This document shows, one piece after another, positions 29,772 to 53,754 of a stretch of DNA of 64,000 nt. The DNA is taken from positions 8,464-72,463 of the IMG/VR virus record IMGVR_UViG_3300028800_001035. One strand, given 5' to 3'. A model generated the notes under the pieces. The model did no database searches. It was given only the letters and a program-made list of their open reading frames with translations, and was not told the origin of the DNA. Positions within the stretch are counted from its first letter, which is position 1. Each line of letters begins with the position of its first letter. This stretch comes from a virus. The position numbers and the translations under genes are program-made.

Positions 29772-29936
29772 TCATTCCCCCTTCTTCGCGAGGAGCGCCG
29801 CTTCTTCGACGCCCTTCCGCCACTTCGCCTCGGAACGGGTCATCCCGTTCCACTTCATCCGCCCGTCGACGAAGAGCGCCCAGCTATAGGCGTCGTCGCC
29901 GCCGTCCTTCCTGATCTTGACCCGGGAGCCGCTCAT
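29772..29936 (-). CDS. hypothetical protein
   Basis: MSGSRVK start overlaps the helicase stop. Confidence 0.5.
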   Translation of the reverse strand: MSGSRVKIRKDGGDDAYSWALFVDGRMKWNGMTRSEAKWRKGVEEAALLAKKGE

Positions 29937-31498
29937 CTCCGGTCCTCCCCGGGGATCAAGATCAGCGTCTCCATCGCCCGCGTCTGCGCAACGTAAAGAA
30001 GGTTGCACTCCTGCTCGAACGCCGCCTCGGACTTCGCCGACTTGAGCGGGACCATCTCCGGCCCGTAAATCGCGACGGTGTGCCACTCGCGACCTTTAGC
30101 TTTATGCATAGTGCAAAGCGTCAAGACGCCCTCGCCGGTCCCGTCGGCGAAGAGCTCGTCAATCTTCGCGAGAACGGCGGGGACGGTCCGGTTCGGGACG
30201 GGGATCGACTCGATCACGGTCTTGATGCAGTCGATCCGATCTTGAAGCGCCTCGGTCTTCGCGACGTCGCCCTTCTTCGCGTTGATCTCCCACTCCTTGG
30301 CGGCGTAGGCGTCCATCCGCTCGAGGAGGCTCTCGACCCCCTTCGGGCGGAGCTTCTTGACGAGGGCCGAGAGGCCCGCGCCGATGTCCTTGCCGAGGAC
30401 GAAGCACCCCCTGCCCTCCGCGATCAGCTTGAAGGCGAGGGAGATCAGGGGGGCGGTCTTGCGGCAGAGGATCGCGGAGCTCGCGTCGAGGCGCGGGAGC
30501 GCGTCCTTGAGCGGGAGCGTTACGACCTCGCCCTCGATCGCGCCGGGGAAGACGTCGAAGTAGGGGACGATCATCCGGGCGAGTTCGCCGACGGCCTTCG
30601 GGCAGCGGTAGGAGGTCGTCAAGGGAAGCTCGACGGTCTTGAACTCGCGGGCGATTACGTCCATCGCGTCGGCGGAAGCGCCCGTGAAGGCGTAGATTGC
30701 TTGGCGGGGATCGCCGACCGCGACGAGGCGACCGTCGCGGCGGAGGACCTTGCGGGCGAACTCCCGGCGGACGGGGTTTGTATCCTGCGCCTCGTCGACG
30801 AAGACCCAGCTATAGGGGAAGAGGCGGAGGTTCCAGAGGAGCGGGAGGTAGAGCTGGTCGTCGAAGTCGATCCAGCGCTCGGTCTCGGCCTTGCGGTTCG
30901 AGGCGGCGAGCGCCTTGCGCGCGATCTCGACGGCGCGGCCCTCGGTCGCCTTCTCGTCGTCGAGCCACATATCCTGCCCGGCGATGATCTCGAACCAGAC
31001 CTCGGGGACGTCCGCCGCGAGGCCCGGGATGCCGACGCCGATTCCCTTGCCGTAGCCGACGAGCTTCGCGACGAAGTCGCCATACATCTCGTATTCGTCC
31101 TCGGAGAGCCGGTCCTTGAGAATCTTCCGGACCTTCCCGCCGTCGACCTCGACCTTGACGTCGCGCCCGAACTTCGCGCAGAGCGCCTTGAAGCCGCGCG
31201 CGTGGAAGGTCGCGGCCTCGACGTTGCGGAAACGCGAAACGTCTCCCAGCTCTTCCGCGAGCTGGGAGACTTTCGCGCGCATCTCCTTGGCGATCGGCGT
31301 ATTGAAGGCGAGGATCAAGACGGTCTCGGAGACCGGGATGTAGGGGAGCGCCCGGACGATTGAGGTCGACTTCCCGGAGCCCGCGACGGCCTTGAGGATC
31401 GCGTTCCCGCGACCCTTGGCAATCCAATCGAAGAAGGCCTGCTGAAGTTTCGACGCGGCGAAGGCGCGCGGGGCGCGGACGGCGAGGGCGGCGCTCAT
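29933..31498 (-). CDS. UvrD/Rep-like SF1 helicase
   Basis: AVAGSGKS, LAFN, ATFHA, VDEAQD, VGDPRQAIY, SYRCP, TMHKAKGREW, LLYVAQTRA. Confidence 0.92.
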   Translation of the reverse strand: MSAALAVRAPRAFAASKLQQAFFDWIAKGRGNAILKAVAGSGKSTSIVRALPYIPVSETVLILAFNTPIAKEMRAKVSQLAEELGDVSRFRNVEAATFHARGFKALCAKFGRDVKVEVDGGKVRKILKDRLSEDEYEMYGDFVAKLVGYGKGIGVGIPGLAADVPEVWFEIIAGQDMWLDDEKATEGRAVEIARKALAASNRKAETERWIDFDDQLYLPLLWNLRLFPYSWVFVDEAQDTNPVRREFARKVLRRDGRLVAVGDPRQAIYAFTGASADAMDVIAREFKTVELPLTTSYRCPKAVGELARMIVPYFDVFPGAIEGEVVTLPLKDALPRLDASSAILCRKTAPLISLAFKLIAEGRGCFVLGKDIGAGLSALVKKLRPKGVESLLERMDAYAAKEWEINAKKGDVAKTEALQDRIDCIKTVIESIPVPNRTVPAVLAKIDELFADGTGEGVLTLCTMHKAKGREWHTVAIYGPEMVPLKSAKSEAAFEQECNLLYVAQTRAMETLILIPGEDRR

Positions 31499-32115
31499 TT
31501 CGCACCGCCTTTCGCGAAGGCGTCGCGGTCTTGCGACGCGACGAAGGCTTCGATCGCCGCGCGCTTCGACGGGTCGGAGAGCTCGCGTTCGTCGTACTGC
31601 TTGACGGAATCGAGAACCTTGCGATCGACGGCGTCGAGGAGCTCGGCGGCGCGGAGGCCGACGTTCTTGTTGCGCATCGCATCGAGGACGACCGCGTAGA
31701 ACGCGTCGGCGGCGTCGCCGACGTAGTAGCGGCGGGACTTGGCAATTTGCTGGTCGCGCTCGATCAAGAGCGCGCGGCCCCAACCCTCGCGATGCTTGCT
31801 GGCCTCGTCGGCGGTCGGAATCCGCCCCGAGAGGAGGAGCCCCTCCGTGATCGCGGCGAAGTCGTCCTGCTTGTCGGCCTTGGCGAAGAGCGTCCGGTCG
31901 ACCCAGGAACCGTCGGCGGGCGTCAACGCGCGGACGAGGACGGGCTCGTGGTTGACGTCGAAGAGCTCGTAGCCCTTGCCGCGATAGTTGCGCATCCAAA
32001 CGGCGCGGCGCTCGCCGTCGACGATCACGTCGAAGTCGTTGATCAGGTTGCGGGGGTTCGTCTCCCCGACGTTGGCGGGGCAGTCGCGGATCACGCGCTT
32101 GAAGGTGAAGTTCAT
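31495..32115 (-). CDS. hypothetical protein
   Basis: RBS aaggag downstream of a promoter motif. Confidence 0.6.
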   Translation of the reverse strand: MNFTFKRVIRDCPANVGETNPRNLINDFDVIVDGERRAVWMRNYRGKGYELFDVNHEPVLVRALTPADGSWVDRTLFAKADKQDDFAAITEGLLLSGRIPTADEASKHREGWGRALLIERDQQIAKSRRYYVGDAADAFYAVVLDAMRNKNVGLRAAELLDAVDRKVLDSVKQYDERELSDPSKRAAIEAFVASQDRDAFAKGGAK

Positions 32116-32174: not shown

Positions 32175-32204
32175 TCCTAGCCCGGAACCCGGGGAAAAGT
32201 AAAG
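32175..32204 (-). promoter_or_regulatory. sigma70-like early promoter (TTTACT-N18-TAGGAT)
   Basis: CTTTACTTTTCCCC repeated exactly at 34556-34569 and 45303-45316. Confidence 0.7.
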
Positions 32205-34515: not shown

Positions 34516-34569
34516 TCGTCTCCGGTTATCTCGGCCCCCATAAGGCCCGATTCCCGGGGAAAAGTAAAG
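34516..34569 (-). promoter_or_regulatory. early promoter motif plus leader motif (copy 2)
   Basis: CTTTACTTTTCCCC at 34556-34569 and ATAACCGGAGACGA at 34516-34529. Confidence 0.7.
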
Positions 34570-38498: not shown

Positions 38499-38749
38499 CT
38501 TTGCCTCCTGATCTTGCCTTCAACCTTGCGCTCCCGCGCCGCCGCCTGCTTGTTGATCTCGGCGGTCGCCTCCCCGGCGATCCCGCCGAAGATAGCGCCC
38601 GCAACGAAGAGCGCAAACATCCGCTCCTTCTCGAGCTTTAGTATAAAATCCTTCGGACCAATCTCAGACGAGGTATATCCCGGCATCTCCGCCGCAAGGT
38701 AGTCCTCGAAGGCGTTCTCGAGCGATTCCTTGGAAACAGAATATGTCAC
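38495..38749 (-). CDS. hypothetical protein
   Basis: GTG start overlapping the polymerase stop. Confidence 0.55.
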   Translation of the reverse strand: MTYSVSKESLENAFEDYLAAEMPGYTSSEIGPKDFILKLEKERMFALFVAGAIFGGIAGEATAEINKQAAARERKVEGKIRRQR

Positions 38750-40713
38750 AGCGCCTCTCCCCACGTCCGCCCCGTCTTCGCCTCGACGAGGACCGGGACC
38801 TTGAGCTTGATCGCGTTCGGCATCACGTCCTCGTGAAGCTCGCGCCAAGCCTCGCGGCCCCGCGCCGTCCTCGGGATCGAGGAGTTGAGTTCGTCGTAGA
38901 TCGTAAGTAGGTACGGCCCCAAGGCGTCCGATGCGGTCAATCCGCGATCGACGCCGTCGACCATCGCCTTCTTGATTATATCCGCGTTCGACGATTGCAT
39001 CTTCTTGTTGAGCGCCGTGTAGGTGTGATAGCGGACGATGTTCGGCCCGTATTCCTTCTCGGCCTCGGCCCGGCGGAGCGGCGTCGCGGGATTGTCCCAG
39101 TTCTTCTTCGCGGGCTCCCAGAGCAGGAACCGCTGGCGTCGCCGGAGGATCGAGCGGACGAAGCCGTGCTTCTCCGCGTACTTCTGCGCCGCGTCGAACG
39201 TATCCTTGTTGAACGGTAGCTTCGCGTCGTAGAGGTCGATGAAGGCCTGCGCCTCTTGCTTCGAGATGCCTAGCATCTCGCCGATCTTGTTCGCGCGGGC
39301 CCCATAGGTCTTGCCGAAGTTTAGGTTCTTGACATATTTCCGCCGCTTCTTGTCCTCCGGCGGGATGCCAGCCATCTCGGCGCACATCTTGTGGTAGTCG
39401 GTCCTCGGGTCCTCGTTGTAGGTCCGCCGGACGGATTCCGCGCTCGGCCCGACCGCGAAGTGCGCGAGGAGCCGATACTCGATCTGCGAAAAGTCCGCCG
39501 AACCCCAATCCTCGCCGTCCTCCGGAAGGAAAAGCCCCCTGATCAGGGGGGCGACGTCGCGGAGATCTTCGTCGGCGCGGTCGTCGTCGCGGCTCGGGAT
39601 GTTGGCGAGGTTCGGGTTCGCGCTCGCCGTCCGCGCGATCGTACCGCCGCCGTCGTCCTTGAGTTGCTTCCACTCGCAATGTATCCGGCCCTTGACGTTC
39701 GAGCCGATGATCGTCCCGTCCATAAAGGTCGAGAGGAGGGTTTGAACCTTCCTCCCGTTGTAGATCGCGGAGCAGAGCGGGTCGCCGAGGCGGGCGGTTA
39801 GCCAACCCTTCGTAATCGAATCTTTCCCGGACTTCGGCGTCTTCGGGATTTGGTGCCCGTTCGCGCGAAGCGCGTCGGTGAAGCTCTCCGGGATTGAGAG
39901 CTCGGCCTTCGGGCTCGAGAGCCGCCGAACCTCGGCGAGGAGGCGGTCGCGGACGCGGACGAGGCCCTCGCGGGTCCGGATCGCGCCCGCGACGTCGACG
40001 CGAACGCCGCGCCGCGTCATATCGACCAAGGGGCGGACGAGGCGGCGCTCGATCTCCCAGACCGGGAGGAGCTCCTCGGCGGCGAGCTTCTCGCGCTGGA
40101 GCTTGATGATCCGGAGCGGGCGGTCGACGTCGGCGAGCGCATAGGGCCCGGCGTGCGAGGAGTGGAGCTTCCAGACGTTCGACTTGATCTGCGAATCCGT
40201 CTTCCAGCCGCGCGCGTTGGCGGCCTTGCGGAGAAGCTCCTCGTCCTTGCCTTGCCCGAGGTAGTCGCGGGCGAGCGCGTCGAGGTTGAACTCGTAGCGC
40301 CATTCGTCGAGCAACGGCTCCGCGATTTGAACGTCGTCGAACGCCTCGACGAGCGGGAACGTCACGCCGTTCTCCGCGAGCCAGTCGAGGTCGTAGGCGA
40401 GCTTCGCGCCGACGACGGTCCCCCGGAAGGCGTTAAGCTCCTCGCGGGCCCAAGCCCAGACGATCCGCTCGTCGAGGTTGCCGCCGCCTTCGTGGCGAAC
40501 GGGAAAGTACCAGCGGCGACCGTCTTCGGTCCCGACCGCGAGGCCGACGACGTAGTTGCCGGGGCGTCGGACGCCGGGGCCGAGCTCGGCGATTTGCGTA
40601 TCCTTGGTCTCGACGTCGACGGCGAGATCGCCGAAGCGCGGCAAGCTCGGAAGCTCAGCGGGCGGATGCCAGGCCGGGACGTCCTCGAGCTCGACGGCGG
40701 AGAGGAGGTTCAA
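38746..40713 (-). CDS. polA: family A DNA polymerase with 3'-5' exonuclease domain
   Basis: Exo DVET and YALAD; NPNLANIP; motif A DFSQIEYR; motif B KNLNFGKTYG; motif C TIYDE. Confidence 0.95.
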   Translation of the reverse strand: MNLLSAVELEDVPAWHPPAELPSLPRFGDLAVDVETKDTQIAELGPGVRRPGNYVVGLAVGTEDGRRWYFPVRHEGGGNLDERIVWAWAREELNAFRGTVVGAKLAYDLDWLAENGVTFPLVEAFDDVQIAEPLLDEWRYEFNLDALARDYLGQGKDEELLRKAANARGWKTDSQIKSNVWKLHSSHAGPYALADVDRPLRIIKLQREKLAAEELLPVWEIERRLVRPLVDMTRRGVRVDVAGAIRTREGLVRVRDRLLAEVRRLSSPKAELSIPESFTDALRANGHQIPKTPKSGKDSITKGWLTARLGDPLCSAIYNGRKVQTLLSTFMDGTIIGSNVKGRIHCEWKQLKDDGGGTIARTASANPNLANIPSRDDDRADEDLRDVAPLIRGLFLPEDGEDWGSADFSQIEYRLLAHFAVGPSAESVRRTYNEDPRTDYHKMCAEMAGIPPEDKKRRKYVKNLNFGKTYGARANKIGEMLGISKQEAQAFIDLYDAKLPFNKDTFDAAQKYAEKHGFVRSILRRRQRFLLWEPAKKNWDNPATPLRRAEAEKEYGPNIVRYHTYTALNKKMQSSNADIIKKAMVDGVDRGLTASDALGPYLLTIYDELNSSIPRTARGREAWRELHEDVMPNAIKLKVPVLVEAKTGRTWGEAL

Positions 40714-41459
40714 GCCGCGCCCTTCTCAATCAGCCATCCGGCGAAGTCGCCATAGCGGAACCACTCGACCGGATTGCCGGGTAGGTCTTCCGGGTCAAGC
40801 GGGCGCTGGACGCCCGCGAGCGAGAGCTCTTTGTCGATGATTTCCTTCGGCGAGACGCCCGTCGACAGCTTGCCCGCAAGGGTTAGGCGATTGAGGACCT
40901 GGCTCGCGTAGCCCGAAGCGAGCGCGGTCCGGTCGACGACGACGAGGGCACCGCCGGGAGCGAGGTTGCACCAAAGATCGTGAAGCAACTTCCGCCGCTT
41001 CTTGGGCGGAACGAACATCACGAAGAGGAAGGCGACGATCAGGTCGTTCTTGTCCTTGTCGGCCCACGGGACGTTTGTCGCGTCCTCGTTCCAGACGTTG
41101 ACGTATGGATGAAACGACACGAAGTCCCTCGAGCCTCGCCGCTTGATTGCTTCGATCATCGCCTCCGACTTCTCGACGCCGTATATTCGGGCGGACCGCG
41201 CCTTGAGGACCGACTGCAGGGCGTAGGCGACGTTGCCGGTCGACGCGCCGAGGTCGATGACGCCTCCGCCTTCCGAGACGTAGTGCCGCGCGATATGGAC
41301 GAGCCCCTTCGTAACGAAGTCGTACCACGGGAGCTGGCTCCGGACGTGCGCGTCGAAGTTCTCCGCGACGTCGGCGGTCTCGAACGACCACGCGCCCTCG
41401 GCGGGTCGCTCGGAGAGGCCGTCGCCGGAGAGCTTCTTGATCTTGGCCTTCTTGGTCAT
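40710..41459 (-). CDS. cmoA: CmoA-like carboxy-SAM synthase homolog
   Basis: WSF...VAENFD.HV..QLPWY, IDLGASTG, SEAM, MFVPP..R..LL..L...LAPGGALV, WFRYGDF match the CmoA pattern end to end. Confidence 0.8.
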   Translation of the reverse strand: MTKKAKIKKLSGDGLSERPAEGAWSFETADVAENFDAHVRSQLPWYDFVTKGLVHIARHYVSEGGGVIDLGASTGNVAYALQSVLKARSARIYGVEKSEAMIEAIKRRGSRDFVSFHPYVNVWNEDATNVPWADKDKNDLIVAFLFVMFVPPKKRRKLLHDLWCNLAPGGALVVVDRTALASGYASQVLNRLTLAGKLSTGVSPKEIIDKELSLAGVQRPLDPEDLPGNPVEWFRYGDFAGWLIEKGAA

Positions 41460-42553
41460 CTCTTCCTCGCCTCTCTCAAATCGCGGTACGGGATCAGGAC
41501 CTTGTCGCGAACCGCCGAAGCGACGGCGGCCATCATAACCGGCGGGACGGCGCGGCCCATCCGCTCCCATTTCTGCTGATAGGTCCCCGTCAACTTAAAG
41601 TCATCGGGGAAGGAGCAAAGCCGCCGGACCTCGGCGATCGAGAACTTCCGCTTCTCGGTCGGATGGCATACCCCGGCGATAGATTCTCCGCCGTGGCTCG
41701 CGAGGATCGTCGGCGCGGGCTTCGACCGGCTCGCGCGGATCAAGGAGAAGAAGCGGTCGGACTGCTGCCCCTCCGCGCACTTGTCCCACTCCGCGCCGAT
41801 CGCGTAGCGCGAGATGTCGATCCCGTCCATAACCCCGGGATGCTCCTCGGTCGCGCCGTCGGTCATCCACGGGCAGGCGTCGCCGACGTTGTAGCGATAG
41901 TCGAGCGGCTCCGGGTAGGCCGGATCGAGCCCGAGGTCCTCGCGGACGCCGACGAAGATAATCCGCATACGTTGCTGCGGGACGCCGAGCCATTGCGCGT
42001 CCAAGACGCGCGCCCCGACGCGGTAGCCGAGCGAGCGTAGGAGCTCGAGGACGTCGTTGAAGTACCCGACCGCAACCCCCCTGACCAATCCCGCGACGTT
42101 CTCGGCGACGAAGGTCTTCGGCTTGATCCCATCGACGAGCCGGGCGAACTCGAAGAAGAGGTCGTCGGTCCGCTGCTTGGAGTCGGAATATTTCCGGACG
42201 ACGCCCCAACCCTCCGACCGCTTCCCGGCGGTCGAGAAGGAGGCGCAGGGGGGACTGCCGTCGAAGAGGTCGAGGCCGCCGGGCTTGACGCCGCACGCGG
42301 TCAAGACGTCGGCGGCTTGGACGGTTCGTATGTCCCGCCCGTCGACGACGGTATAGGGGCGCGCGTTCGCCTCGTAGGTCGCCCGCGCCTCCGGGATGAA
42401 CTCGTTCGCGTAGCCGAGCTTGAAGCCCGCCATCCGGTAGCCGAGGCTCGAGCCCCCGCAACCGGAAAACGTACTCGCGGCGACGAAGCCGTTCGGCTCG
42501 AGCGCGTCGATCTCCGCCATCAGCGGGACGCGGTAGGGAGGCTTCTCGGTCAT
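41456..42553 (-). CDS. C5-cytosine DNA methyltransferase family enzyme, candidate carboxymethyltransferase
   Basis: Motif I FSGCGG, IV GSPPC, VI ENV, VIII QQRMR, IX RLCSFPDDF, X ERMGRAVPP (R in place of the usual N). Confidence 0.9.
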   Translation of the reverse strand: MTEKPPYRVPLMAEIDALEPNGFVAASTFSGCGGSSLGYRMAGFKLGYANEFIPEARATYEANARPYTVVDGRDIRTVQAADVLTACGVKPGGLDLFDGSPPCASFSTAGKRSEGWGVVRKYSDSKQRTDDLFFEFARLVDGIKPKTFVAENVAGLVRGVAVGYFNDVLELLRSLGYRVGARVLDAQWLGVPQQRMRIIFVGVREDLGLDPAYPEPLDYRYNVGDACPWMTDGATEEHPGVMDGIDISRYAIGAEWDKCAEGQQSDRFFSLIRASRSKPAPTILASHGGESIAGVCHPTEKRKFSIAEVRRLCSFPDDFKLTGTYQQKWERMGRAVPPVMMAAVASAVRDKVLIPYRDLREARKR

Positions 42554-42786
42554 TCTTCGGAGACCTTCGTGTCGTCGGCGTTGGGCTTGGGATTGCCGCG
42601 CCAGCCGTAGCCACATTTTGCACAGCAGAACTCGACCTCGATCCCGGCGGAGAAGTCCGGCCACGCCTCGGGCGGGACGGCGCTCTCGGGATCGTAGCCC
42701 GCGAGGTCGGAGACCTCCTTGACGTCGAACAAGGCGGAAGCGCCGATGCCGACGGGGCCGAGGGAGGAGGAGCGGAGTTTTGCCAT
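42550..42786 (-). CDS. small CxxC (zinc-ribbon-like) protein in the modification operon
   Basis: CAKCGYGW; overlaps both neighbours. Confidence 0.65.
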   Translation of the reverse strand: MAKLRSSSLGPVGIGASALFDVKEVSDLAGYDPESAVPPEAWPDFSAGIEVEFCCAKCGYGWRGNPKPNADDTKVSEE

Positions 42787-43589
42787 CAGTCTAATACTCC
42801 GGCGGCGATCTTGTTATAGGCGGCGATCGGCGACTTCGCGCCGGGGGCGTACTTCCGGAGGACGGCGTTGCCGACCGTCTCCGCTATCTTGGAATCGCCG
42901 AGCTGAAGGTTCGTATGCCGCGCGATCGAGAGGGGATCGAGCTCGGGGAACTCTTTCCGAATCGCCTCCTTCTGGCGCGGCTTGTTGAGATCGTCCCAGG
43001 TCGAGCGGGCGAAGAGGTCGAAGACATCATTGCTGAAATACGGCGAAAAGATCGAGACGTTGTTCGCGATCCCGATCGCGCGGAGCGTAGAAACTTGCGC
43101 CGCGTCCGGGTTCGCGAAGTAGTCCGCCCGGAATTTCTGAAACTTCGCTCTCGGATAGCGGTGATGGATCATCGCCTTCTTCGAGAGCGCAAAATGCCCG
43201 TCCGCCGCCGAGCCGACGACGAGCGTCGAAAGCCCGGCGCGCTTCAAGGTCGCAATCGTCGCGAGGAAGGGCCAGAGGCACTCGATCGCGGTCTTCCGCC
43301 GGGCCTCCCAGGTCTCGATAAGATAGCGGACGTCGGCGACGATCGTCTCCTCGGAAGTCGGTAGCGCGACCGGAAGGAACGGAAGGCCGAAGGCCTCCGC
43401 CAAGTGCCTAGCGGCTTTGAAGTCGCTCGACTCGTACCGTTCGAGGGAAAAGGAAACAACCGTAACGGTCTTCCCCGCGTCGATCGCGGCAAGGACGAGG
43501 GCCGAGGAGTCGATTCCGCCGGAAGTCGCGACGGCGATCTTCGCGTCCGGGATAGCCTTGATTTTGTCGGCGAGGATTTGGCGGAGCAT
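42786..43589 (-). CDS. asparagine-synthetase-like ATP-dependent amide ligase (no glutaminase domain)
   Basis: PP-loop ATSGGIDSS, GSAADGHF, SPYF, KEAIR; 267 aa. Confidence 0.8.
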   Translation of the reverse strand: MLRQILADKIKAIPDAKIAVATSGGIDSSALVLAAIDAGKTVTVVSFSLERYESSDFKAARHLAEAFGLPFLPVALPTSEETIVADVRYLIETWEARRKTAIECLWPFLATIATLKRAGLSTLVVGSAADGHFALSKKAMIHHRYPRAKFQKFRADYFANPDAAQVSTLRAIGIANNVSIFSPYFSNDVFDLFARSTWDDLNKPRQKEAIRKEFPELDPLSIARHTNLQLGDSKIAETVGNAVLRKYAPGAKSPIAAYNKIAAGVLD

Positions 43590-44572
43590 CAACTCCTCCC
43601 CGTCACGAGACCGCGAACGACCGGGCCGACGAAGGCGCTCGGCGCGGGATAGGCGGAGAGGTCCCAGGCGGTCGCGTTGGCTACGACGAGGTCGGCGAGG
43701 GCGACGTGCCACTTGCTCGCGTCGCGCCCTTCGGGGACCGCGCTCTCGACCTCCTCCTCGACGGTAGCCGCGCCGTTGACGCCGACGATCTTGTCGGCAC
43801 GTATCGCAATCTCGCCGTCGGCGAACCCGGCGACGCGTATAAATGCCCCTCTCCACTCCTCCGTAATTTCCGGAGGAGTTGGCGAGGTAGCAACCTTCTC
43901 GGCGAGGCGGTCGATCGTCCCGGGGACCTTGCCGTCGACCAAGGACGACGCGAGCCAGGCTCCGTCCTCCCAGAAGAAGCTCGCGCGGTTCGCGGAGAGG
44001 GAGATTCGATTCGGCGGCGTCGCCGCGCCGAGGACGGCCATCAAGGCGCGCTTGGGGATCAGGGCGTCCGCGCCGAAGTCGGGGATCGATGCGTAGGCGT
44101 AGATCGCGGCCTGCGGCCCGCAGGCGCTCGCGCGCCCGTGCTGAATTATCAAGGCGTTCATCCACGCCGGTTGGGGGTCCTCGGAGACGAAGCCCGAGAG
44201 GACCTCGAAGCGCGAGAGCGTCGCCGCGTCGAGCGGGTGCGCGTCGGCGTCGCTCGGCGTCGCCGGGACGAAGGTCTCGACGAACTTCGCGAGACGGACT
44301 TCGCCCTTGAAGCGCCCGGCGCGGATTCGGAGGACATCGCCTTCGACGTCGAACTCGGGATCGGAGGGCATCCTCGAGAGGACGGCCTCGAACTCGGACC
44401 CGGCGACGATCGCGTCGCCGAGCCACGGGAAGGGGGCGGAGGCGGTCATCGCGCGCGAGTTCGCGGCGATCCGCCCCCCTGACAAAACGAGCCAGGAGAA
44501 CGGGCCCGAGTCCTCGCGGTCGAGGGCCGCCTTGACGCGCGCGATCGCCGCGAGGGCTCGGGAGAGTTCCAT
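43589..44572 (-). CDS. DNA sliding-clamp (beta-like) protein
   Basis: 327 aa with three-fold helix/strand repetition; replication context; no diagnostic motif. Confidence 0.5.
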   Translation of the reverse strand: MELSRALAAIARVKAALDREDSGPFSWLVLSGGRIAANSRAMTASAPFPWLGDAIVAGSEFEAVLSRMPSDPEFDVEGDVLRIRAGRFKGEVRLAKFVETFVPATPSDADAHPLDAATLSRFEVLSGFVSEDPQPAWMNALIIQHGRASACGPQAAIYAYASIPDFGADALIPKRALMAVLGAATPPNRISLSANRASFFWEDGAWLASSLVDGKVPGTIDRLAEKVATSPTPPEITEEWRGAFIRVAGFADGEIAIRADKIVGVNGAATVEEEVESAVPEGRDASKWHVALADLVVANATAWDLSAYPAPSAFVGPVVRGLVTGRS

Positions 44573-44575
44573 CGG

Positions 44576-45238
44576 CTATTCCTCAATCCCGAAGATAGAC
44601 TCGAGCGTCTTGCCCTTTGGGAGCGTGATCGAGACGACTTCCTTATCGTCGATCTCGAAGGTCCCGCCGACGAGCGCCGCGACCTTCTTGACGCGGAACT
44701 TCGCCCGCGACTTCTGATTGCGCCCGTTGTCGGCGAGGCGCATCAGCGGAACGAGCTGACCGAGAGTCTTGCTGCCCTCGACCCCGTACTTCAAGACGCG
44801 CCCGAGCGAGGAGTTCTCGCGTACGGCGAGAGCCGTCCCGTTCTTCTTCTTGGCGACCTTCGCCGCCTTCTTGCCCTTCTTTGCCATTTCATTCTCACCA
44901 TTTTGAGTTTCTGCCGCTGATGCTACCTTCGAGTTCGCGGCTTCGCTCTCGACGGGTTGATTCCGGAATTGAGATTCGAGGAGGCCGAAGACGCGTTCCG
45001 CGCCGATCGACCGGGTCTCGAACTTGTTGACGGGCTTCGCGCCGTCCGGCGCGAGCGCGTTGTGCATCGCGACGAGGCTCGGCCCCGACTTCGACGCGAG
45101 GTCGCCGACCTCGGAGACGACGGAGGTCGAACAATTCGCGAAGCGCGTCTCGATAGCGCGGTTCGCCGCCGCGACGTCGGCGAACGTAAAGACTTCCACG
45201 TCCTTTCGCGACAGCCCTAGTATTAGATAAGTCACCAT
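44576..45238 (-). CDS. hypothetical protein with Lys/Ala-rich linker
   Basis: Downstream of promoter copy 3. Confidence 0.6.
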   Translation of the reverse strand: MVTYLILGLSRKDVEVFTFADVAAANRAIETRFANCSTSVVSEVGDLASKSGPSLVAMHNALAPDGAKPVNKFETRSIGAERVFGLLESQFRNQPVESEAANSKVASAAETQNGENEMAKKGKKAAKVAKKKNGTALAVRENSSLGRVLKYGVEGSKTLGQLVPLMRLADNGRNQKSRAKFRVKKVAALVGGTFEIDDKEVVSITLPKGKTLESIFGIEE

Positions 45239-45286: not shown

Positions 45287-45316
45287 ATCCTATGCGCGTC
45301 GCGGGGAAAAGTAAAG
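45287..45316 (-). promoter_or_regulatory. early promoter (TTTACT-N17-TAGGAT), copy 3
   Basis: CTTTACTTTTCCCC at 45303-45316 followed by TAGGAT. Confidence 0.75.
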
Positions 45317-47328: not shown

Positions 47329-48813
47329 TTAAATCCGATACCCGTACTGCGTGCCCGGCGCGACGAGGATCAGCTTCTCCTTGCACCGCGTCGCGCCGAC
47401 GTAGAACACGCGATGCTCGCTATCCTCGTCGAGCTCCATCGCCCGGCTCGTCCGGTAGGTCATATCGGTGACGAGGACGACGCCCTCCGCCTCCGCGCCC
47501 TTGCTCCCGTGGATCGTCTCGATCCGGACCTTCGGCTCGTCGGTCAGCTTCCCGCCGCGCCGCATGATCGCGAGGTAATATTCGCGGGTCTCGAGGGGGA
47601 TCTCGGTCAAGGCGTCGTGCCATATCCGGCCGGCATCGTAGCCGAGCTCGGCGGCGGAGCGGCTCCCCTCGAACGGCTCGAACGCGATCCCGGCGGACTT
47701 GGCGAGGGCGTCGGCCTCCTCCCGGTCTATCTTCTTGCCGCCCCGGAGCGCCTCGTGGGCCTTGATCGCGCGGACGTCGGCCCAGCGGACGGACTTCTCG
47801 CCCTTGACCTCGTACGCAACCCCCTGCGCCCTTGCGGCGGCGGCGAGCGCGGGAAGTTGCGCCCTAGTCCTCGCCAACAAGAGCCAGCGCCCGTCCCCTC
47901 CGAGGCCCGCTCCGGAGAAGTCGACCTCGTCGGCGGCGGCAACCCAATCGACCGACCCTTCCCGGTTGGAGGGCCGCCAGTCGCGGGCGTACTTCTTGCC
48001 GATCCGCGCCCCGATCTCCGCCGCGAGCCGGAAGGGGGCTCGCGGTAGGCGATGCGACAGGGGGAGATTCTCGATCTCGAAGCCCTCGGCGCGGAGGCCG
48101 AGGAACTTCTCCTCGTCGGCCCCGGCCCAGTGGTGGATCATTTGCATATCGTCCCCGGCGACGAAAAGTTCCTCCGCGTTGGCGAAGAGGCGGTTCGCGA
48201 CGCGCCACTGCGCGCGGGAGAGGTCTTGCGCTTCGTCGACGATCGCGACGTCGACGTCGAGCGGGGGAAAGGAGGAGTCGGCGTAGCGCGTCAGCATATC
48301 CGTGAAGTCGAGGACGTCCTCGTCGTCCTTGTAGGCCTCGTAGGCGCGGTTGAAGCGGAGGAGCCGGAACCACTCGAGCTCGGAGCCGTGATCGCTCCAG
48401 GCGTCGGCGAGCGAGCGCCCGGTCGTCCGCGCGAAGTGGTCGAGCGTCAAGAGCGGATCGGCGGAGCGACCAGCGACCGGCGCGTCGGAGAAGGGGTTCG
48501 TCAAGGACGTCAGGAGCTCGCCGGTAATCTCGGAGACGCGGTCGAGGTGCTCGTCGCCGAGGACGCGGCCCCGCCCGAGGCCGAGCTCGCGGAAGGCGAA
48601 GGCGTGGATCGTCTTGAAGTTCGGGAGGTCGTCCGGGGTTAGGCCGAAGGCGTCGCAGGCCCGCTTGATCGCGAGCCGGATCGCCTCCTTCGTAAAGGAC
48701 GCGAAGGCGATCCGCGCGGGCGGGATGCCCGCCTCTAAGGCGAGCTCGACCTTGCGGAGGAGCTTCTCCGTCTTGCCAGCGCCGGGCCCGCCGAGGACGA
48801 GGACCTTCCTCAT
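47329..48813 (-). CDS. second UvrD/Rep-like SF1 helicase
   Basis: GGPGAGKT, SFT, KTIHA, VDEAQD, AGDDMQ, SHRLP, TIHGSKGAEA, FYVGATR. Confidence 0.92.
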   Translation of the reverse strand: MRKVLVLGGPGAGKTEKLLRKVELALEAGIPPARIAFASFTKEAIRLAIKRACDAFGLTPDDLPNFKTIHAFAFRELGLGRGRVLGDEHLDRVSEITGELLTSLTNPFSDAPVAGRSADPLLTLDHFARTTGRSLADAWSDHGSELEWFRLLRFNRAYEAYKDDEDVLDFTDMLTRYADSSFPPLDVDVAIVDEAQDLSRAQWRVANRLFANAEELFVAGDDMQMIHHWAGADEEKFLGLRAEGFEIENLPLSHRLPRAPFRLAAEIGARIGKKYARDWRPSNREGSVDWVAAADEVDFSGAGLGGDGRWLLLARTRAQLPALAAAARAQGVAYEVKGEKSVRWADVRAIKAHEALRGGKKIDREEADALAKSAGIAFEPFEGSRSAAELGYDAGRIWHDALTEIPLETREYYLAIMRRGGKLTDEPKVRIETIHGSKGAEAEGVVLVTDMTYRTSRAMELDEDSEHRVFYVGATRCKEKLILVAPGTQYGYRI

Positions 48814-49058
48814 CTCCCGACCTCGATCTTCCCCGGCTGCCAATAGGTCCGCGCGCCTATTCCCGGGCGGTCGAGAAACTCGCCGCGCTTGCCGGGCTTG
48901 TAGAGGTCGACGAGGACGAGGAAGCCGAACGTCTCGTCCGGGATCACGCGCTTGACCCGCCCCGCCCGACCGAAGCAAGGGTCGTCGCGGATGATCACGT
49001 CGCGCCCGACGAGGCGTTCGGCGGCGGCGAAGGTCGCCGCAAAGTCGGAAGCCATCAC
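48810..49058 (-). CDS. small SH3/KOW-like hypothetical protein
   Basis: Overlaps both neighbours. Confidence 0.5.
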   Translation of the reverse strand: MMASDFAATFAAAERLVGRDVIIRDDPCFGRAGRVKRVIPDETFGFLVLVDLYKPGKRGEFLDRPGIGARTYWQPGKIEVGR

Positions 49059-49546
49059 GGCGCGTCCGCCTTCTCAAGCTCGCCGGGGGCGCTCGCGAAG
49101 AAGTCGGCGGGAGAGTCGTAGCGGAGGCTCGCGACGATCTCGTCGAGCGCGACCTTGAGCGTCCCGCGCCGCTTCATCGCTCGACCGAACTGCCACTTCG
49201 AGTATCCCCGGTTCGTTCCGATAACGTAGATCGGCTTCCCGTGCGCGTCGGCGTAGCCCGCCTCGTAGAGCGCGCCCTTGAGGTCGTCGTCGCGCTCGGC
49301 GTAGACGAGGAAGACGTCGGCGCGACGTATGTCGGCCTTGTTATCCTCGAGCCAGTGCCGCGCGGGGCGGTTCATCTCGCTCGAAACGTCGGCGACGGCG
49401 GCCCAGCGGGAAGTCAGGTAGATGTTTGGGTAGGCGTCGCGGATCGCGAGGATCTTCTTCGCGTGGAGGAGCTTGCTCGCGGCATAGAGCGAGACGGACG
49501 CCCCCGGCGGTAGCGCCATACTCTGCGTCTTCATATCTCCGGTCAT
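49055..49546 (-). CDS. nucleoside 2-deoxyribosyltransferase / Rcl-like N-glycosidase
   Basis: LYAAS...DIRRADVFLV...GALYEAGYA.A.GKPIYVIG. Confidence 0.75.
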   Translation of the reverse strand: MTGDMKTQSMALPPGASVSLYAASKLLHAKKILAIRDAYPNIYLTSRWAAVADVSSEMNRPARHWLEDNKADIRRADVFLVYAERDDDLKGALYEAGYADAHGKPIYVIGTNRGYSKWQFGRAMKRRGTLKVALDEIVASLRYDSPADFFASAPGELEKADAP

Positions 49547-50391
49547 TGTTTTCCCTTTCCGAGGTTCTTGGTGAATAGTTCTTCGAGGCCCGCCGCGTAG
49601 GCGGCGATCAGGGTCGCTCCGGAGGAGAGCTTCCGCGACTCCGCCATTCCGAAGAGATATTTGATCCCGACGGTCTTGATCGCGCGGATCACGCCGATCG
49701 GGTCGGCGAGCCACGCCGGGTTGGCGGCGAGGACGGAGGTCGTCGCCGTCACGATCGGGGCGCGGAGGAGGCCCGGGTTGCCGCCGCCGGTATCGACGAC
49801 CGTCCGGAGCGCGAGTTCGAGGACCTCGGGCCCCCAGGACTTGAAGGCCTTCTCGAGCGCGCCGATCGCGAGGGTCTCGCCGGGGACCATCCCGGAGAGC
49901 GGCTTCGTCCCGCGCGGGATCGTCACGCCGACCTTCTCGAGGACGCGGCTCAAGCGGACGGCGACGGAATCCCCGGCCATGAGCCGCGCGTGCCAGATTT
50001 GCTGCTCGGCGATCGCGGTAACGGCCCCGTTGATCACGGAGAAGGCCTTCGCCTCGTCCGCCCGGTCCCCCCTGATAACGAGGCACGGGACCTTCTCGAT
50101 CCCGCCGTGGGTCCGCGCTGCGATCGCCCGGTGCTGCCCGTCGATTACGGCGTAGAGGCCGCCCTCGCGCGCGCAGACGACGAGCGGGGAGAAGAGGCTC
50201 CAGGAGAAGTTTTCGATCACCTGCCGGATGTTCTTCTCGCCCTTCGGCCCGATCGGTCGCTGATACTTCGGGTCGATCCGGAGGTCGCGGAGGTCGAGCC
50301 ACGCGAGCTCGCCGACGGCGTCGGTCGGAGCCGGGTTCGGGAAGGGCGGCGCGAAGGCGACCGCGTCGAGGGAGAGAAGTTCGTCGTTCAT
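49543..50391 (-). CDS. ParB/Srx-like N-terminal domain protein
   Basis: IDPKYQR and VIDGQHR motifs, EAKAF..IN. Confidence 0.75.
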   Translation of the reverse strand: MNDELLSLDAVAFAPPFPNPAPTDAVGELAWLDLRDLRIDPKYQRPIGPKGEKNIRQVIENFSWSLFSPLVVCAREGGLYAVIDGQHRAIAARTHGGIEKVPCLVIRGDRADEAKAFSVINGAVTAIAEQQIWHARLMAGDSVAVRLSRVLEKVGVTIPRGTKPLSGMVPGETLAIGALEKAFKSWGPEVLELALRTVVDTGGGNPGLLRAPIVTATTSVLAANPAWLADPIGVIRAIKTVGIKYLFGMAESRKLSSGATLIAAYAAGLEELFTKNLGKGKQ

Positions 50392-50744
50392 ATCGCCTCC
50401 GCGTTCGGGTCCGCCATATAGTAGCCGCGTCCCCAGGACGTCCCGATGTCGATCCCGAGCGGCTTGATTTTCTTCCGGAGCTTGCAGACGTATACGTCGA
50501 CTATCTTGATCTCCGGGACCTCTTCCTCGGTCCTCCGGAGTTGGTATAGGTGCTCGAGGATCGCCTCCTTCGGGACGATCCGCCCGGCCCTCTCGAAGAT
50601 GAACTCGAAGACCGCCATCTCCTGCGGGGTCAACGACCCGCAGCGCTTGCCGCCGTAGCGTATCTCCGCGCGGTCGCGGTCGAGGATTATTCCGCCGAAC
50701 TCGGGAAGCGCCGAACCGCAATGCTCGCAAACTCTCCCGCTCAT
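50388..50744 (-). CDS. receiver-less CtrA-like winged-helix regulator
   Basis: LEHLY...PEIKIVDVYVCKLRKK...TSWGRGY closely matches the CtrA DNA-binding domain; N-terminal CxxC. Confidence 0.8.
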   Translation of the reverse strand: MSGRVCEHCGSALPEFGGIILDRDRAEIRYGGKRCGSLTPQEMAVFEFIFERAGRIVPKEAILEHLYQLRRTEEEVPEIKIVDVYVCKLRKKIKPLGIDIGTSWGRGYYMADPNAEAI

Positions 50745-51160
50745 CCGTAGACCTCCCCTATCATCGACGCGACGGCGCGAGCGTGCGGGCCCGTCGCCTC
50801 GAACTGCTCGACGAGGATCGCGACGACCTTGCTCCGGCGCTCGAGCTCGCCGGGCGCGAGCTCCGGGCGCGTCGCGCGAACGGCGGAATAGCCGAGCCCG
50901 AAAACGGTCGTCGTCAGGACGACGCCGTAGTCCGCGAGCTTGAAACGGAGCCGCGAGGCGTAGACGCGGGAGGCGTTGAGCGGGTCCTCTTCGACCTTGC
51001 CGACGTCGCCGACGAGGTCCCGATGCCGCACCGGGCGACCCTCGGCGCGAAGTAGCGTCGCGACGAAGCGCGCCTCGGCGCGGGTCAGGCTCATTTCGAC
51101 CGGGGCGTGAAACCGCCTCGCGACCTCGTCGAACGACCATCCTCCCCACTCGATCATCAT
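50741..51160 (-). CDS. receiver-less OmpR/PhoB-type winged-helix protein
   Basis: LTRAE...RVYASRLRFKL...TVFGLGY. Confidence 0.7.
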   Translation of the reverse strand: MMIEWGGWSFDEVARRFHAPVEMSLTRAEARFVATLLRAEGRPVRHRDLVGDVGKVEEDPLNASRVYASRLRFKLADYGVVLTTTVFGLGYSAVRATRPELAPGELERRSKVVAILVEQFEATGPHARAVASMIGEVYG

Positions 51161-52752
51161 CACATCTCCACCGCCGCCGCGCCGCGCGGGACGGCGTGCT
51201 CTTCGGTCTGCTCGGGGAAGGCGGGAACCGACCAATAGTCGACCCGCTTGCCCTTGATGTCGGATGCGTGACTATCGACGCCGCGCTTGCGGAGCCAGCG
51301 CCAGGCGTCGCGGTCGTTGATCCCAGCGAAGCGGTGGGCGGTCAAGTAGGCGAAGAAGTCGGTCGAGCGGAAGTAGACGCGCTTCTTCGCGTGATCCGTA
51401 AAGGCCTTCCCGAGGATGATTTCTTCGAGGAGCCGCGCGCGGGCCCGGCCTGTGCAGAAGGCGGCGAGGTGCGCGAAGAACTGCCCCTCCCGCGTCCCGT
51501 CGTCGGGAACGACGATCGTCGTCGCGCTTGCGAGGAGGTCGCGGACGATCTTCTCCCAGGCGGACGGCTTGACGGGGTTGGGCCATTTGTTGAGGCGCTC
51601 GATCACGAAGGTCCGGAACTTGCGCTGATCCGTCAACGCGTCGGTCGTCACCTCGAGGAGCTCGCCGTCGACCTCGATCACCCAGACGGGCGGTTCGGTC
51701 AGGACTTTGGCGAGGGTCCCGAACTTGACGCCGGGGTCGAGCGGTTCGCCGCCAAGGCCGAAGTCGACCTTGGCGCAGGCGGTCTTGTTGCAGACGCCGG
51801 AGATCGGGCCGTCTTTGCATTTGTAGAAGTAGTTCTTCTTCTTGACCGACTTGACGACCGACCGTATATCCGCGCTCGGAACGCCGAGGCCGAGCCGGTC
51901 ATTGTAGTCGATCAGCGCGGCCTCGACGTCCTCCTCGCCGCGCTTCTTGAGGTATATCCCGATGTCGAAGAGGGAGTTGTTTCCCCAATCGCCCCAGCCG
52001 TTCGTCGCCCAGAGCGTCCGGAGGCACGGCGGAGCTCCGGGGAAGAGGTCCTCGCCCGGCGGCGGAAGATCGGGCGGCGTCGCGACCTCGATCTTCTCGA
52101 GCGTCTCCGGCGAGATCGCGCGGCGGCGAACCTCCTCTATGAACTCGTCGACCGAGAGCGCCTCGTCGTTCGGCCCGAGGGCGTAGCGGAGGCTCCGGTT
52201 GCCTCCGGCATACGGGATGTTGATCCAGGACCCGTCCGACTCCGGCGTAAGGACGTCCTGCTTCGGAAATATTTCGACGCCGGGATGGCCCAAGGCGATA
52301 GCCCAGGCGATCAGCTTCTCGCGGACGAGCGTCGCCCGCGCGGGCGAAGAGAGGAAGAGGTAGGCGTGCGCGCCGGAGGACTTGGTCCGGCAAACGATCA
52401 AAGGAAGGCCGAGCTCGGCGACCTTGGCTCTGAACTTCTCGATGGTTAGCGGATAGACGTCGACGTCGATTGCGCCGAAGACGGCGGTTCCGTCCTCGCG
52501 GATCGGGACGATCCCGAGCCCGACCGGGCCCGTAACGGGCTCGTCGGTCTTCTCGTCCTTGACGGTCGCGATCACCCCGGAGAGGTGATCTTCCCATTCC
52601 TTGAGGCCGACGGGGCGCTTCGACGTCCAGGGACGGCCGACGATCTTGCCGGTCTTCGGATCGGCGATCGCGCCGGTCGGAACGACGTAGCGCCCGCTCG
52701 ATCGCGCGAGCCCCGCAAATATCCGAGAAAATTCTTCCGCCCTTGATGACAA
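51160..52752 (-). CDS. AEP-superfamily primase
   Basis: GAIDVD, TKSSGAHAY, EIFPKQ, INIPY, PPC, Cys-rich PriL-like region. Confidence 0.8.
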   Translation of the reverse strand: MSSRAEEFSRIFAGLARSSGRYVVPTGAIADPKTGKIVGRPWTSKRPVGLKEWEDHLSGVIATVKDEKTDEPVTGPVGLGIVPIREDGTAVFGAIDVDVYPLTIEKFRAKVAELGLPLIVCRTKSSGAHAYLFLSSPARATLVREKLIAWAIALGHPGVEIFPKQDVLTPESDGSWINIPYAGGNRSLRYALGPNDEALSVDEFIEEVRRRAISPETLEKIEVATPPDLPPPGEDLFPGAPPCLRTLWATNGWGDWGNNSLFDIGIYLKKRGEEDVEAALIDYNDRLGLGVPSADIRSVVKSVKKKNYFYKCKDGPISGVCNKTACAKVDFGLGGEPLDPGVKFGTLAKVLTEPPVWVIEVDGELLEVTTDALTDQRKFRTFVIERLNKWPNPVKPSAWEKIVRDLLASATTIVVPDDGTREGQFFAHLAAFCTGRARARLLEEIILGKAFTDHAKKRVYFRSTDFFAYLTAHRFAGINDRDAWRWLRKRGVDSHASDIKGKRVDYWSVPAFPEQTEEHAVPRGAAAVEM

Positions 52753-52839: not shown

Positions 52840-53754
52840 TTACATCTCGACTTCGTTCTCGGCTGCGGGTTCCTCGACCAAACCGCCGGTGTAGTCGACC
52901 TCGGCCTTGCCCTCCTCGACAAACTTCGCGAACTCCTTCGCCATAGCGAAGAGCGGGTCGGACTTCTTGATGAACGACTTGACGGAGACGTCGTCCGAGC
53001 CGTCCTCCTTCTTCGCGAGGAGCCCGATCACGTAACCCTTGAACGCGCCCTTCTTGTTGCGCTCGTTGCCGGTGGTCAGGAGCCACTTGTGGGAATAGAG
53101 CGCGGGCTTGACCGGGACCTCCGAACCGGCGACGAGGTATTCGAAGCCGTCGGCGCGGTCGATGAACGTAGTGTATTTAGAAATTTGCGTCGACTGGAAC
53201 GGAACAATCGCGCGGAACTTCGATCCCGTCGCCGGGTCGATGAGGATCGAGTAGAGCTCGAAGCTCTCGACGATCTCCGTCCCGTCGAGCGGCTTGCCGT
53301 CCTTGTCCCGCTTGGTCACGCCGTTCGGGAGGCGGCCGAACTTGCCGAACTTGGCGCGGAGGTCCTTGATGAGCTTGTCGCCGGGCTGATGAAGGCCGAC
53401 GAAGCCCCCGCCGATCTCGCGCGGCGTATATTCGATGAACTTGTGATCCCGCGCGCACGCGATCATAATCAACGACGAGTAGAGCTGCTTCGACGCCGTG
53501 TTCATGAAGAGCCCGGCCTTGGCGTTCGGCATATACTTGGCGTTGCCCTCCTCGCACTCCGGAGAGTTCGATTGAAGGATGCGGAGGAAGGGAACCTTCC
53601 GCTCGTCGGCGGAGATGTTCTTGAGCCCAGCCCCCCTGTCCTCCTCGTCGATCTCGACGACCGCGAGCTGGGTATTGTTTGCCGCCGTCGGGAGCTGCTT
53701 GTCGGCTTCCGGGGCCGGAGCCTCGGGTTTCTTTTCTTCGGTCTTGGCGTTCAT
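52840..53754 (-). CDS. ssDNA-binding / annealing-like protein
   Basis: PFLRILQSNSP motif, acidic C-terminal tail, adjacent to the primase. Confidence 0.6.
   Translation of the reverse strand: MNAKTEEKKPEAPAPEADKQLPTAANNTQLAVVEIDEEDRGAGLKNISADERKVPFLRILQSNSPECEEGNAKYMPNAKAGLFMNTASKQLYSSLIMIACARDHKFIEYTPREIGGGFVGLHQPGDKLIKDLRAKFGKFGRLPNGVTKRDKDGKPLDGTEIVESFELYSILIDPATGSKFRAIVPFQSTQISKYTTFIDRADGFEYLVAGSEVPVKPALYSHKWLLTTGNERNKKGAFKGYVIGLLAKKEDGSDDVSVKSFIKKSDPLFAMAKEFAKFVEEGKAEVDYTGGLVEEPAAENEVEM

Follow-up and report, generated by a model that had tools for sequence, protein, structure and literature searches.

The window examined here, a stretch of 64,000 nucleotides (nt) comprising bases 8464-72463 of the 72,463-bp IMG/VR virus record IMGVR_UViG_3300028800_001035, comes from an uncultured phage of 72.5 kb and carries, among replication genes, a candidate CmoA-CmoX-CmoY module for the hypermodification of cytosine. 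The record is rated 100% complete by CheckV and has a G+C content of about 65%; no transfer RNA (tRNA) genes were found on the phage DNA, and no close cultivated relative was found when the family A DNA polymerase (PolA) was searched against 50,697 records of cultivated phages, the best match having 38.7% identity. The genes of the run all lie on the minus strand, in the order 220-amino-acid (aa) protein, clamp, CmoY, tail protein, CmoX, CmoA and PolA. The first (44576-45238) is of unknown family, with no Pfam match and a G+C content at third codon positions (GC3) of 0.81, and is followed by a sliding-clamp-like processivity factor of 327 aa (43589-44572; phrog_947, 'DNA polymerase processivity factor', E-value (E) 5.5e-22; no Pfam match). 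Next come a putative amide ligase of the CmoY type (267 aa, 42786-43589, with SGGIDSS at 43503-43523 and NLQLGDS at 42891-42911) and a stand-alone tail protein of 78 aa (42550-42786) with CCAKC at 42613-42627 and PPEAWPDFS, the predicted CmoX-contacting strand, at 42649-42675. A CmoX-type C5-cytosine transferase (365 aa, 41456-42553; SPPC at 42245-42256, motif X GRAVPP at 41540-41557) and a homologue of the carboxy-SAM synthase CmoA (249 aa, 40710-41459; segment DKELSLAGVQRP, containing K210, E211 and R219, at 40800-40835) precede PolA (38746-40713; PF00476, E 2.6e-49), the last coupled gene.

An earlier note on this DNA had described four genes with overlapping stops and starts between a clamp-like gene and the DNA polymerase, and the junctions read from the sequence are as described. 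The clamp/ligase and ligase/small-protein junctions are TGATG (1-nt overlap), those between the small protein and the transferase and between the transferase and CmoA are ATGA (4-nt overlap), and at the CmoA/polymerase junction (TTGA) the TTG start of the polymerase overlaps the CmoA stop. GC3 is 0.82-0.89 in the six genes from the clamp through the polymerase; in the 78-aa open reading frame (ORF) it is 0.85, compared with 0.62 and 0.53 in the other two frames, and this ORF is therefore coding. A motif of 14 bases, CTTTACTTTTCCCC, has three exact minus-strand copies (32191-32204, 34556-34569 and 45303-45316), the last lying close upstream of the unit's first gene, and a fourth copy with two mismatches at 63411-63424 (minus strand). 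With 0.23 copies expected by chance and none of 100 shuffles reaching four, the motif is likely a phage promoter element, one copy of which would head the operon. No convincing terminator was found inside the operon (7 found, 8.0 expected), and the module would be co-transcribed with the replication genes.

The three enzyme families have a published precedent in Synechococcus phage S-B43, whose CmoA-CmoX-CmoY system was described in December 2025 (Yang et al., Nat Commun; PMC12783734). There SpCmoA produces carboxy-S-adenosylmethionine (carboxy-SAM, Cx-SAM), SpCmoX, a C5-methyltransferase homologue for which Cx-SAM is the only cofactor accepted, forms 5-carboxymethylcytosine (5cxmC) at GC sites, and SpCmoY, an asparagine-synthetase homologue, acts on 5cxmC-DNA with ATP and glycine to give 5gcxmC; the glycine amide 5gcxmdC is contained in S-B43 virion DNA, and carboxymethylated DNA of this system resisted HhaI (PMC12783734). 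The similar cyanophage trio that the earlier note had mentioned is this one, and the pathway it proposed is thus right as an idea but not new. Yang et al., whose 5,615 candidate CmoX proteins come partly from IMG/VR, define CmoX by the motif SPPC (S95-C98 of SpCmoX) together with Arg350, a residue that stands where M.HhaI has Asn304 and is in contact with the cofactor carboxylate; the R350N variant of SpCmoX is inactive (PMC12783734).

The window transferase carries this signature. It matches PF00145 (E 3.1e-50, over aa 26-347) and TIGR00675 (E 1.3e-43), and its SPPC and GRAVPP motifs occupy aa 100-103 and 333-338, respectively; the 'altered' C5-methyltransferase of the earlier note has the C5-methyltransferase fold and motifs, with Arg in motif X. 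BLASTP aligned it with SpCmoX at 37% identity (E 4e-75), and in a sequence search of the PDB that returned 41 sequences at E<=1e-10 the best match was SpCmoX itself (8yf3_A, E 6.8e-64), followed by the HaeIII methylase (E 2.6e-18). The window segment 'ermGRaVPP' aligns with 'ervGRmVPP' of SpCmoX, placing Arg334 at the position of R350, and SPPC aligns with the SPPC of 8YF3. Judged from its sequence, the transferase has every CmoX-defining feature that a sequence can test.

Whether Arg in motif X goes with a carboxy-SAM synthase could be read from related loci. A search of IMG/VR with the CmoX alignment gave 573 relatives, the best 80 of which were kept and are the basis of all locus counts below; they are the closest relatives rather than a random sample, many end at contig edges, and they were scanned as six-frame ORFs with home-made profiles. 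(Searches for related loci with the single ligase sequence and with the small-protein alignment gave two loci and one locus, respectively.) SPPC was found in 80/80 loci, and motif X had Arg in 71 and Asn in seven, the pattern being unmatched in two. A CmoA gene accompanied 69 of the 71 Arg-type transferases, the two exceptions having just 1042 and 1261 bp downstream of CmoX, and both of those with an unmatched motif X. None of the seven Asn-type loci (L034, L037, L047, L054, L074, L082 and L083) had one, with at least 3 kb of sequence downstream in five and short flanks in two. Thus, among close relatives, the Arg/Asn switch in motif X tracks the presence of the carboxy-SAM synthase, which is what the published CmoX mechanism predicts, and this natural control supports calling carboxymethyltransferases from that single residue in sequence. 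Arg334 is also invariant in 52 aligned sequences, all of which had been picked as Arg-type, so this invariance is by selection.

The CmoA homologue matches phrog_4752 (E 1.3e-45), and its three sequence matches in the PDB are all CmoA/YecO (4gek, E 1e-12). Its AlphaFold2 (AF2) model, with a predicted local distance difference test (pLDDT) value of 86.7, is best matched by 4gek and 1im8, with TM-scores of 0.78 by query (TMq) and 0.84-0.85 by target (TMt). The window protein conserves K198 and the columns in which E. coli CmoA contacts SAM (Y39, D62, G64 and F137). The entire 72,463-bp record contains no match to CmoB (TIGR00452), no second C5-methyltransferase and no chorismate mutase; the earlier note had reported the lack of CmoB for the window, and this extends to the whole record.

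For the ligase, the earlier note had proposed an asparagine-synthetase-type PP-loop enzyme lacking a glutaminase domain, and this description holds: the PP-loop SGGIDSS lies at aa 23-29, the protein matches PF00733 (Asn_synthase, E 5.8e-9) at profile positions 10-136 of 354 only, and no GATase domain was found by Pfam in its 267 aa. BLASTP aligned it with SpCmoY (A0A514ABJ0, 271 aa) at 32% identity over residues 1-231 (E 3e-41). What its AF2 model (pLDDT 95.9) resembles is the synthetase half alone of AsnB and beta-lactam synthetase (TMq 0.71-0.78, TMt about 0.4) and of carbapenam synthetase. The family is a large one (155 matches at E<=1e-10), its members measuring about 242-310 aa among the matches listed. 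Across the 80 loci, 17 have a short ligase of the CmoY type, 10 a long one of the AsnB type that includes a glutaminase domain and 53 none in the available sequence; ligases are optional in CmoX loci. In the co-occurrence check suggested in the earlier note, CmoA accompanied the Arg-type transferase almost throughout and a ligase was found in 27 of the 80 loci.

The fourth gene of the module encodes the 78-aa protein, for which no family match was found in Pfam, NCBIfam or PHROG. The 'CxxC protein' of the earlier note does have a CxxC, but a single one (C55-x-x-C58, plus C54) and not a four-Cys zinc ribbon. Eight close homologues share 65-73% identity with it, with CxxC and WRGN invariant, and C55, C58 and W62 are invariant across 52 aligned tails. 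A profile of this tail, searched against 1.84 billion representative proteins, gave 93 matches at E<=1e-3. Sixty-five have a length of 110 aa or more, and 57 of these carry the motif no further than 25 aa from the C-terminus; among the 28 below that length, 25 start with Met. The tail aligns with only the last ~60 residues of ParB-like proteins, and the 78-aa protein itself has no match to the ParB N-terminal domain PF02195, making it a relative of the tail and not a ParB protein. The stand-alone tails of 57-106 aa (P0130-P0211) are a diverse family in which a basic N-terminus, GYDPxS and an acidic extension after W-x-G are frequent; ParB-fused tails lack the acidic extension and end a few residues past WSGK.

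The tail is a near-constant companion of CmoX in the 80 loci. Its profile matches 76 of them, in 73 as part of a ParB-type ORF, in one as part of another ORF of 279 aa and in two as cuts at a contig end; of the four loci in which it is absent, three begin with CmoX at a contig edge. In 71 of the 73 no module gene was detected ahead of the tailed ParB-like ORF, and in the other two it follows another ParB-type ORF. These ParB domains were detected with a home-made profile built from nine N-terminal pieces. Against PF02195 (cut-off 26.3 bits), tailed proteins scored 27.4 (L004), 25.0 (L011) and 23.2 bits (P0158), with no match for gp122 of Streptomyces phage TurkishDelight, and because these matches are marginal the label 'ParB-like' relies partly on GenBank annotation and on Yang et al., who report ParBc proteins of unknown function from 1,660 contigs (PMC12783734). 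Six of the seven Asn-type loci retain a ParB-like protein with a CxxC tail, the seventh (L054) starting at a contig edge; the tailed helper is therefore common to the ordinary methylases and the carboxymethylases of this clade.

One syntenic relative, L006, separates the tail from the ligase. Its clamp (69%), tail (71%), CmoX (76%), CmoA (49%) and PolA (73%) are identical to those of the window to the extents given, but the position of CmoY is taken by an N6/N4 DNA methylase (PF01555, E 3.6e-23), and the tail still lies directly upstream of CmoX. Since L006 keeps the tail even though the ligase is replaced, the tail goes with CmoX and not with the ligase. In the 12 kb of L006 sequence available no ligase was found, and the gene order suggests that cassettes have been exchanged around a tail-CmoX-CmoA core that stays fixed. 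The PF01555 gene lies at 5254-6000 of L006, and a weak Dam-like gene (PF05869, E 1.5e-5, below the cut-off) lies at 7972-8454, between CmoA and PolA.

The pairing of the tail with CmoX was also modelled. From a 52-row CmoX alignment and a 52-row tail alignment, the complex prediction scored 0.88 (0.88, 0.86 and 0.88 in three runs), whereas the best of three controls scored 0.00. Among solved complexes 58 of 80 attain this mark, and among mismatched pairs 2 of 110, counts that are approximate here, own alignments having been used. Contacts agree between the runs to at least 56%, the partner pLDDT is at least 59, and the tightest predicted contacts are between tail residues 42-46 (WPDFS) and CmoX residues 180-185, with tail residues 60-65 touching as well. 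A solved structure of such a complex is not known to us. In a literature search that most subscription journals lay outside, PMC12783734 alone was found to describe CmoX and no paper dealt with docking of a ParB tail onto a C5 transferase, and neither 'zinc' nor 'CxxC' occurs in PMC12783734. A zinc site in the tail was considered and is not claimed, because the pattern of a third ligand (His two residues before, or Cys directly before, the first Cys) is inconsistent across 49 locus tails.

Taken together, these features indicate that the locus is very probably a CmoA-CmoX-CmoY DNA hypermodification module that includes a predicted docking tail of 78 aa. By homology to the S-B43 enzymes, the CmoA homologue would convert SAM and host prephenate to carboxy-SAM. 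CmoX would then flip out a cytosine, with Cys103 attacking C6 and Arg334 holding the Cx-SAM carboxylate, and would transfer the carboxymethyl group to C5 of the phage DNA after replication. The 267-aa ligase would adenylate the carboxymethyl carboxylate and join it to an amine, glycine being the sole precedent, and the resulting modified base would shield the phage DNA from host nucleases. The 78-aa protein would most likely bind CmoX, contributing in the complex models an extra strand alongside residues 179-185 of the enzyme. The route set out in the earlier note, from Cx-SAM through 5-carboxymethylcytosine to an amide, is the same, and it finds its support in homology to the S-B43 enzymes and in gene context. 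A further extension is put forward tentatively: that the ParB-like helpers of C5 transferases of the CmoX type and of the related Asn type dock on the enzyme through the CxxC tail (as a strand beside CmoX 179-185), that the ParB domain has been dispensed with here, that the conserved N-terminal peptide MAKLRSSSLGP...ALFDV may tether CmoX, for instance to the clamp two genes upstream, and that the GDS ligase may add an amine other than glycine, giving a new hypermodified cytosine.

Several observations weigh against this interpretation. The target-recognition region of the window CmoX aligns poorly with that of SpCmoX, so the GC target motif is not transferable to it. Binding of the tail to CmoX is a prediction and purely modelled, and since SpCmoX alone is active in vitro (PMC12783734) a helper is not needed for catalysis in S-B43. 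Two differences of the ligase from SpCmoY, taken up below with the choice of amine, count in the same direction, as does the weakness of the CmoA assignment by curated models: the top NCBIfam matches are TIGR00740 (E 1.7e-17, 63.9 bits against a cut-off of 193.3) and NF011995 (56.5 against 285), far under both CmoA cut-offs, identity to SpCmoA is low (23%, E 1e-15 by BLASTP), and Glu211 occupies the column of E. coli Arg199, which forms a salt bridge to the cofactor carboxylate (PMC3663124). The last objection is weakened, though not removed, by the proven SpCmoA, which shares Glu199 and has Arg203 and Lys207. When E. coli CmoA was aligned with 77 phage CmoAs (loci L001, L002, L004-L087), Lys198 was retained in 76, and column 199 held Glu in 47, Arg in 22 and Ala in six. 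These residues co-vary with their neighbours, Glu199 occurring with Arg207 in 46 proteins (including the window protein, through R219), Arg199 with Val207 in 22 and Ala199 with Arg203 in six, such that 75 of the 77 have Arg at column 199 (22), 203 (7) or 207 (46). This suggests, from the alignment, that the carboxylate-binding Arg has been relocated among the three columns in phage CmoAs. Because the proven SpCmoA and many phage CmoAs deviate from it, the bacterial Arg199 hallmark is not diagnostic for the phage clade, and the CmoA-like protein of the earlier note is supported as a CmoA by fold, homology and context, but with scores below the curated cut-offs and Glu in the Arg199 column. The idea that the three columns lie on one helix face was dropped, as the AF2 helix ends at residue 214 and R219 is in a loop.

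These weaknesses of the CmoA homologue are also what an ordinary 5-methylcytosine methylase would have in its favor, the CmoA-like protein then depleting SAM, serving a tRNA function or carrying out a different methylation of a small molecule; generic methyltransferase Pfam families match the homologue too, and methyltransferases of the CysG/BelI type are structurally nearly as close to it (TMq 0.71-0.73). We consider this highly improbable, since motif X has Arg instead of Asn and SpCmoX with the same Arg takes only Cx-SAM (PMC12783734), 8YF3 leads the solved matches by an E-value margin of 45 orders of magnitude, CmoA is present in 69/71 Arg-type loci against 0/7 Asn-type loci, and the record has no CmoB. 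It is likewise improbable, if slightly less so, that the ligase amidates a small molecule or RNA and sits beside CmoX incidentally. Weak matches to the PP-loop enzymes QueC, LarE and MnmA and the presence of any ligase in just 27 of 80 loci, within the sequenced flanks, would fit such a role, but the enzyme is a homologue of SpCmoY, which is active on 5cxmC-DNA (PMC12783734), short CmoY-type ligases occur within the ParB-CmoX-CmoA module in 17/80 loci and long AsnB-type ones in 10/80, and here the stop and start codons are coupled to both neighbors. The identity of the amine is far less settled, and it is close to a coin toss whether the pathway is the same but the amine is ammonia, another amino acid or a polyamine-like compound, giving a new amide. 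His132 and NLQLGDS are invariant in 70 aligned ligases of the clade of the window ligase, whereas SpCmoY has Tyr at H132 and NLQLGSN for NLQLGDS, and its nearest relative, L051, also deviates from His132/GDS; of the 17 short ligases of CmoX loci, 14 have His132 with the full GDS and 16 have Asp232 alone. In a network of 90 ligases the window enzyme falls in a different component from SpCmoY at 1e-56, the threshold of Yang et al., and owing to these differences a glycine assignment is unsafe. Yang et al. describe several ligase clusters that differ in their active-site residues and whose amines are not known; according to them, the residues contacting the glycine carboxylate are preserved in the cluster of SpCmoY and in several smaller clusters, and the other clusters probably use other amines (PMC12783734). 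Glycine is favored by the clear similarity to SpCmoY (32%, 3e-41) at similar length, and the network is tiny beside the 2,251 ligases of Yang et al. and cannot assign the window enzyme to one of their clusters.

The part assigned to the 78-aa protein is the other point at which a different explanation has some weight. It could be a decaying ParB remnant, a zinc-bridged dimerization module or a binder of DNA or of another protein, and we regard this as unlikely on balance but well worth keeping in view. CxxC occurs only once in the protein, a ParB domain is missing, and the tail pLDDT in the complex model is just ~60. A single CxxC per chain is reminiscent of the Rad50 hook. The one ParB helper studied needs both its N- and C-terminal domains, the latter described as a dimerization domain (PMC13229309). 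Against such readings stand the eight homologues (65-73%) that conserve both the N-terminal peptide and the tail, a GC3 of 0.85 with coupling to neighbors at both ends, and the 25 of 93 profile matches that are full-looking proteins of less than 110 aa starting with Met. Partnership with CmoX is further favored by L006, in which the tail stays beside CmoX despite a different upstream enzyme, and by a complex score of 0.88 against 0.00 for all three controls.

Among 20 further ORFs of the window that were searched, no other DNA-modifying genes were found besides a weak ParB_N match (E 9.2e-4, 15.5 bits) close to the N-terminus of a 415-aa ORF at 49055-50302 (minus strand, as are all genes in this paragraph). 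The same ORF resembles nucleoside 2-deoxyribosyltransferases at aa 309-366 (PF05014, E 6e-5, below the cut-off) and is possibly, to judge from these matches, a ParB-fold fusion to a nucleoside-handling domain; it gave no match to the CxxC-tail profile. Close to the module, genes for replication and regulation (50388-51149, 51160-52752, 47329-49077 and 29933-31999) include a receiver-less winged-helix protein of the OmpR/CtrA type (PF00486, E 5.9e-13), an archaeo-eukaryotic primase (AEP)-type primase (PF22548, E 4.7e-8) and two UvrD-like helicases. ORFs at 56537-56977, 52840-53754 and 54469-55059 encode a protein of the YspA/SLOG family (PF10686, E 1.5e-16), a homologue of gp34 of cyanophage Pam3 (PF23977, E 4.2e-43) and one of Pam3 gp33 (PF23984, E 8e-14), respectively.

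Because the system is published and IMG/VR was among the collections mined, the discovery value of the central assignment is low, and the window copy mainly adds a high-G+C example, set in a replication module, of a widespread published system. What is particular here is the placement of the module inside a replication operon, a common but uncharacterized GDS ligase and a helper cut down to a free, predicted docking tail. The GDS subgroup is the commonest in our sample and is unlike the sole characterized CmoY, which makes it a reasonable first target for new cytosine amides. For the unexplained ParB-like neighbors of CmoX, the locus offers a testable handle: the CxxC tail conserved at their C-termini is present here as a free protein of 78 aa that is confidently modelled onto CmoX; if tail docking is true, it shows which part of the helper touches CmoX and gives a minimal construct for binding and activation assays.

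Compared with S-B43, the window has the same three enzyme families in one coupled cluster, a CmoX with SPPC and Arg, a ligase of ~270 aa without glutaminase and no CmoB. It differs in gene order (CmoY-tail-CmoX-CmoA as opposed to CmoA-CmoY-CmoX), in its 65% G+C and different host type, with cultivated PolA matches of at most 39%, in the divergent target-recognition region of CmoX and in GDS where SpCmoY has GSN; it also has the 78-aa tail protein, whereas the S-B43 cluster has no ParB or tail gene within 4 kb. The closest CmoX of a cultivated phage (52.6% identity) is that of Streptomyces phage TurkishDelight, gp121-gp125 (NC_073473), where an Arg-type CmoX, a CmoA homologue and a CxxC tail ('...EYKCPRCEYTWSGKPA') immediately upstream of CmoX are likewise present. 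Unlike in the window, the TurkishDelight tail is the C-terminus of a 197-aa protein annotated as a ParB-like nuclease domain protein, and the ligase is a 466-aa AsnB-like enzyme with GATase_6/7, for which the reasoning of PMC12783734 would imply ammonia derived from glutamine.

More distant likenesses concern single components. With the E. coli CmoA/CmoB pathway to cmo5U in tRNA (4GEK, 4IWN, 1IM8; PMC3663124) the window shares the CmoA fold and the SAM contacts, but it has no CmoB, the acceptor would by homology be DNA, and Arg199 is replaced by Glu, with an Arg (R219) eight columns later. The AsnB, beta-lactam and carbapenam synthetases (1CT9, 1MC1, 1Q15) have the same PP-loop fold, and by implication the adenylation chemistry; unlike them, the window ligase corresponds to the C-terminal half only, and its target carboxylate would, by homology to SpCmoY, be on DNA. 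ParB-fold fusions to phage DNA methyltransferases exist, with a presumed helper role (PMC12704722). According to O'Toole et al. (PNAS 2026; PMC13229309), ParB176 activates the phage thymine dioxygenase 5mYOX176 on double-stranded DNA and both ParB domains are required. The 5mYOX176/ParB176 pair resembles the CmoX loci in having a small ParB-like protein beside a base-modifying enzyme, and such a helper heads most of them (73/80); the window differs from that pair in that its enzyme is a C5 transferase, not a dioxygenase, and in that it keeps the tail only.

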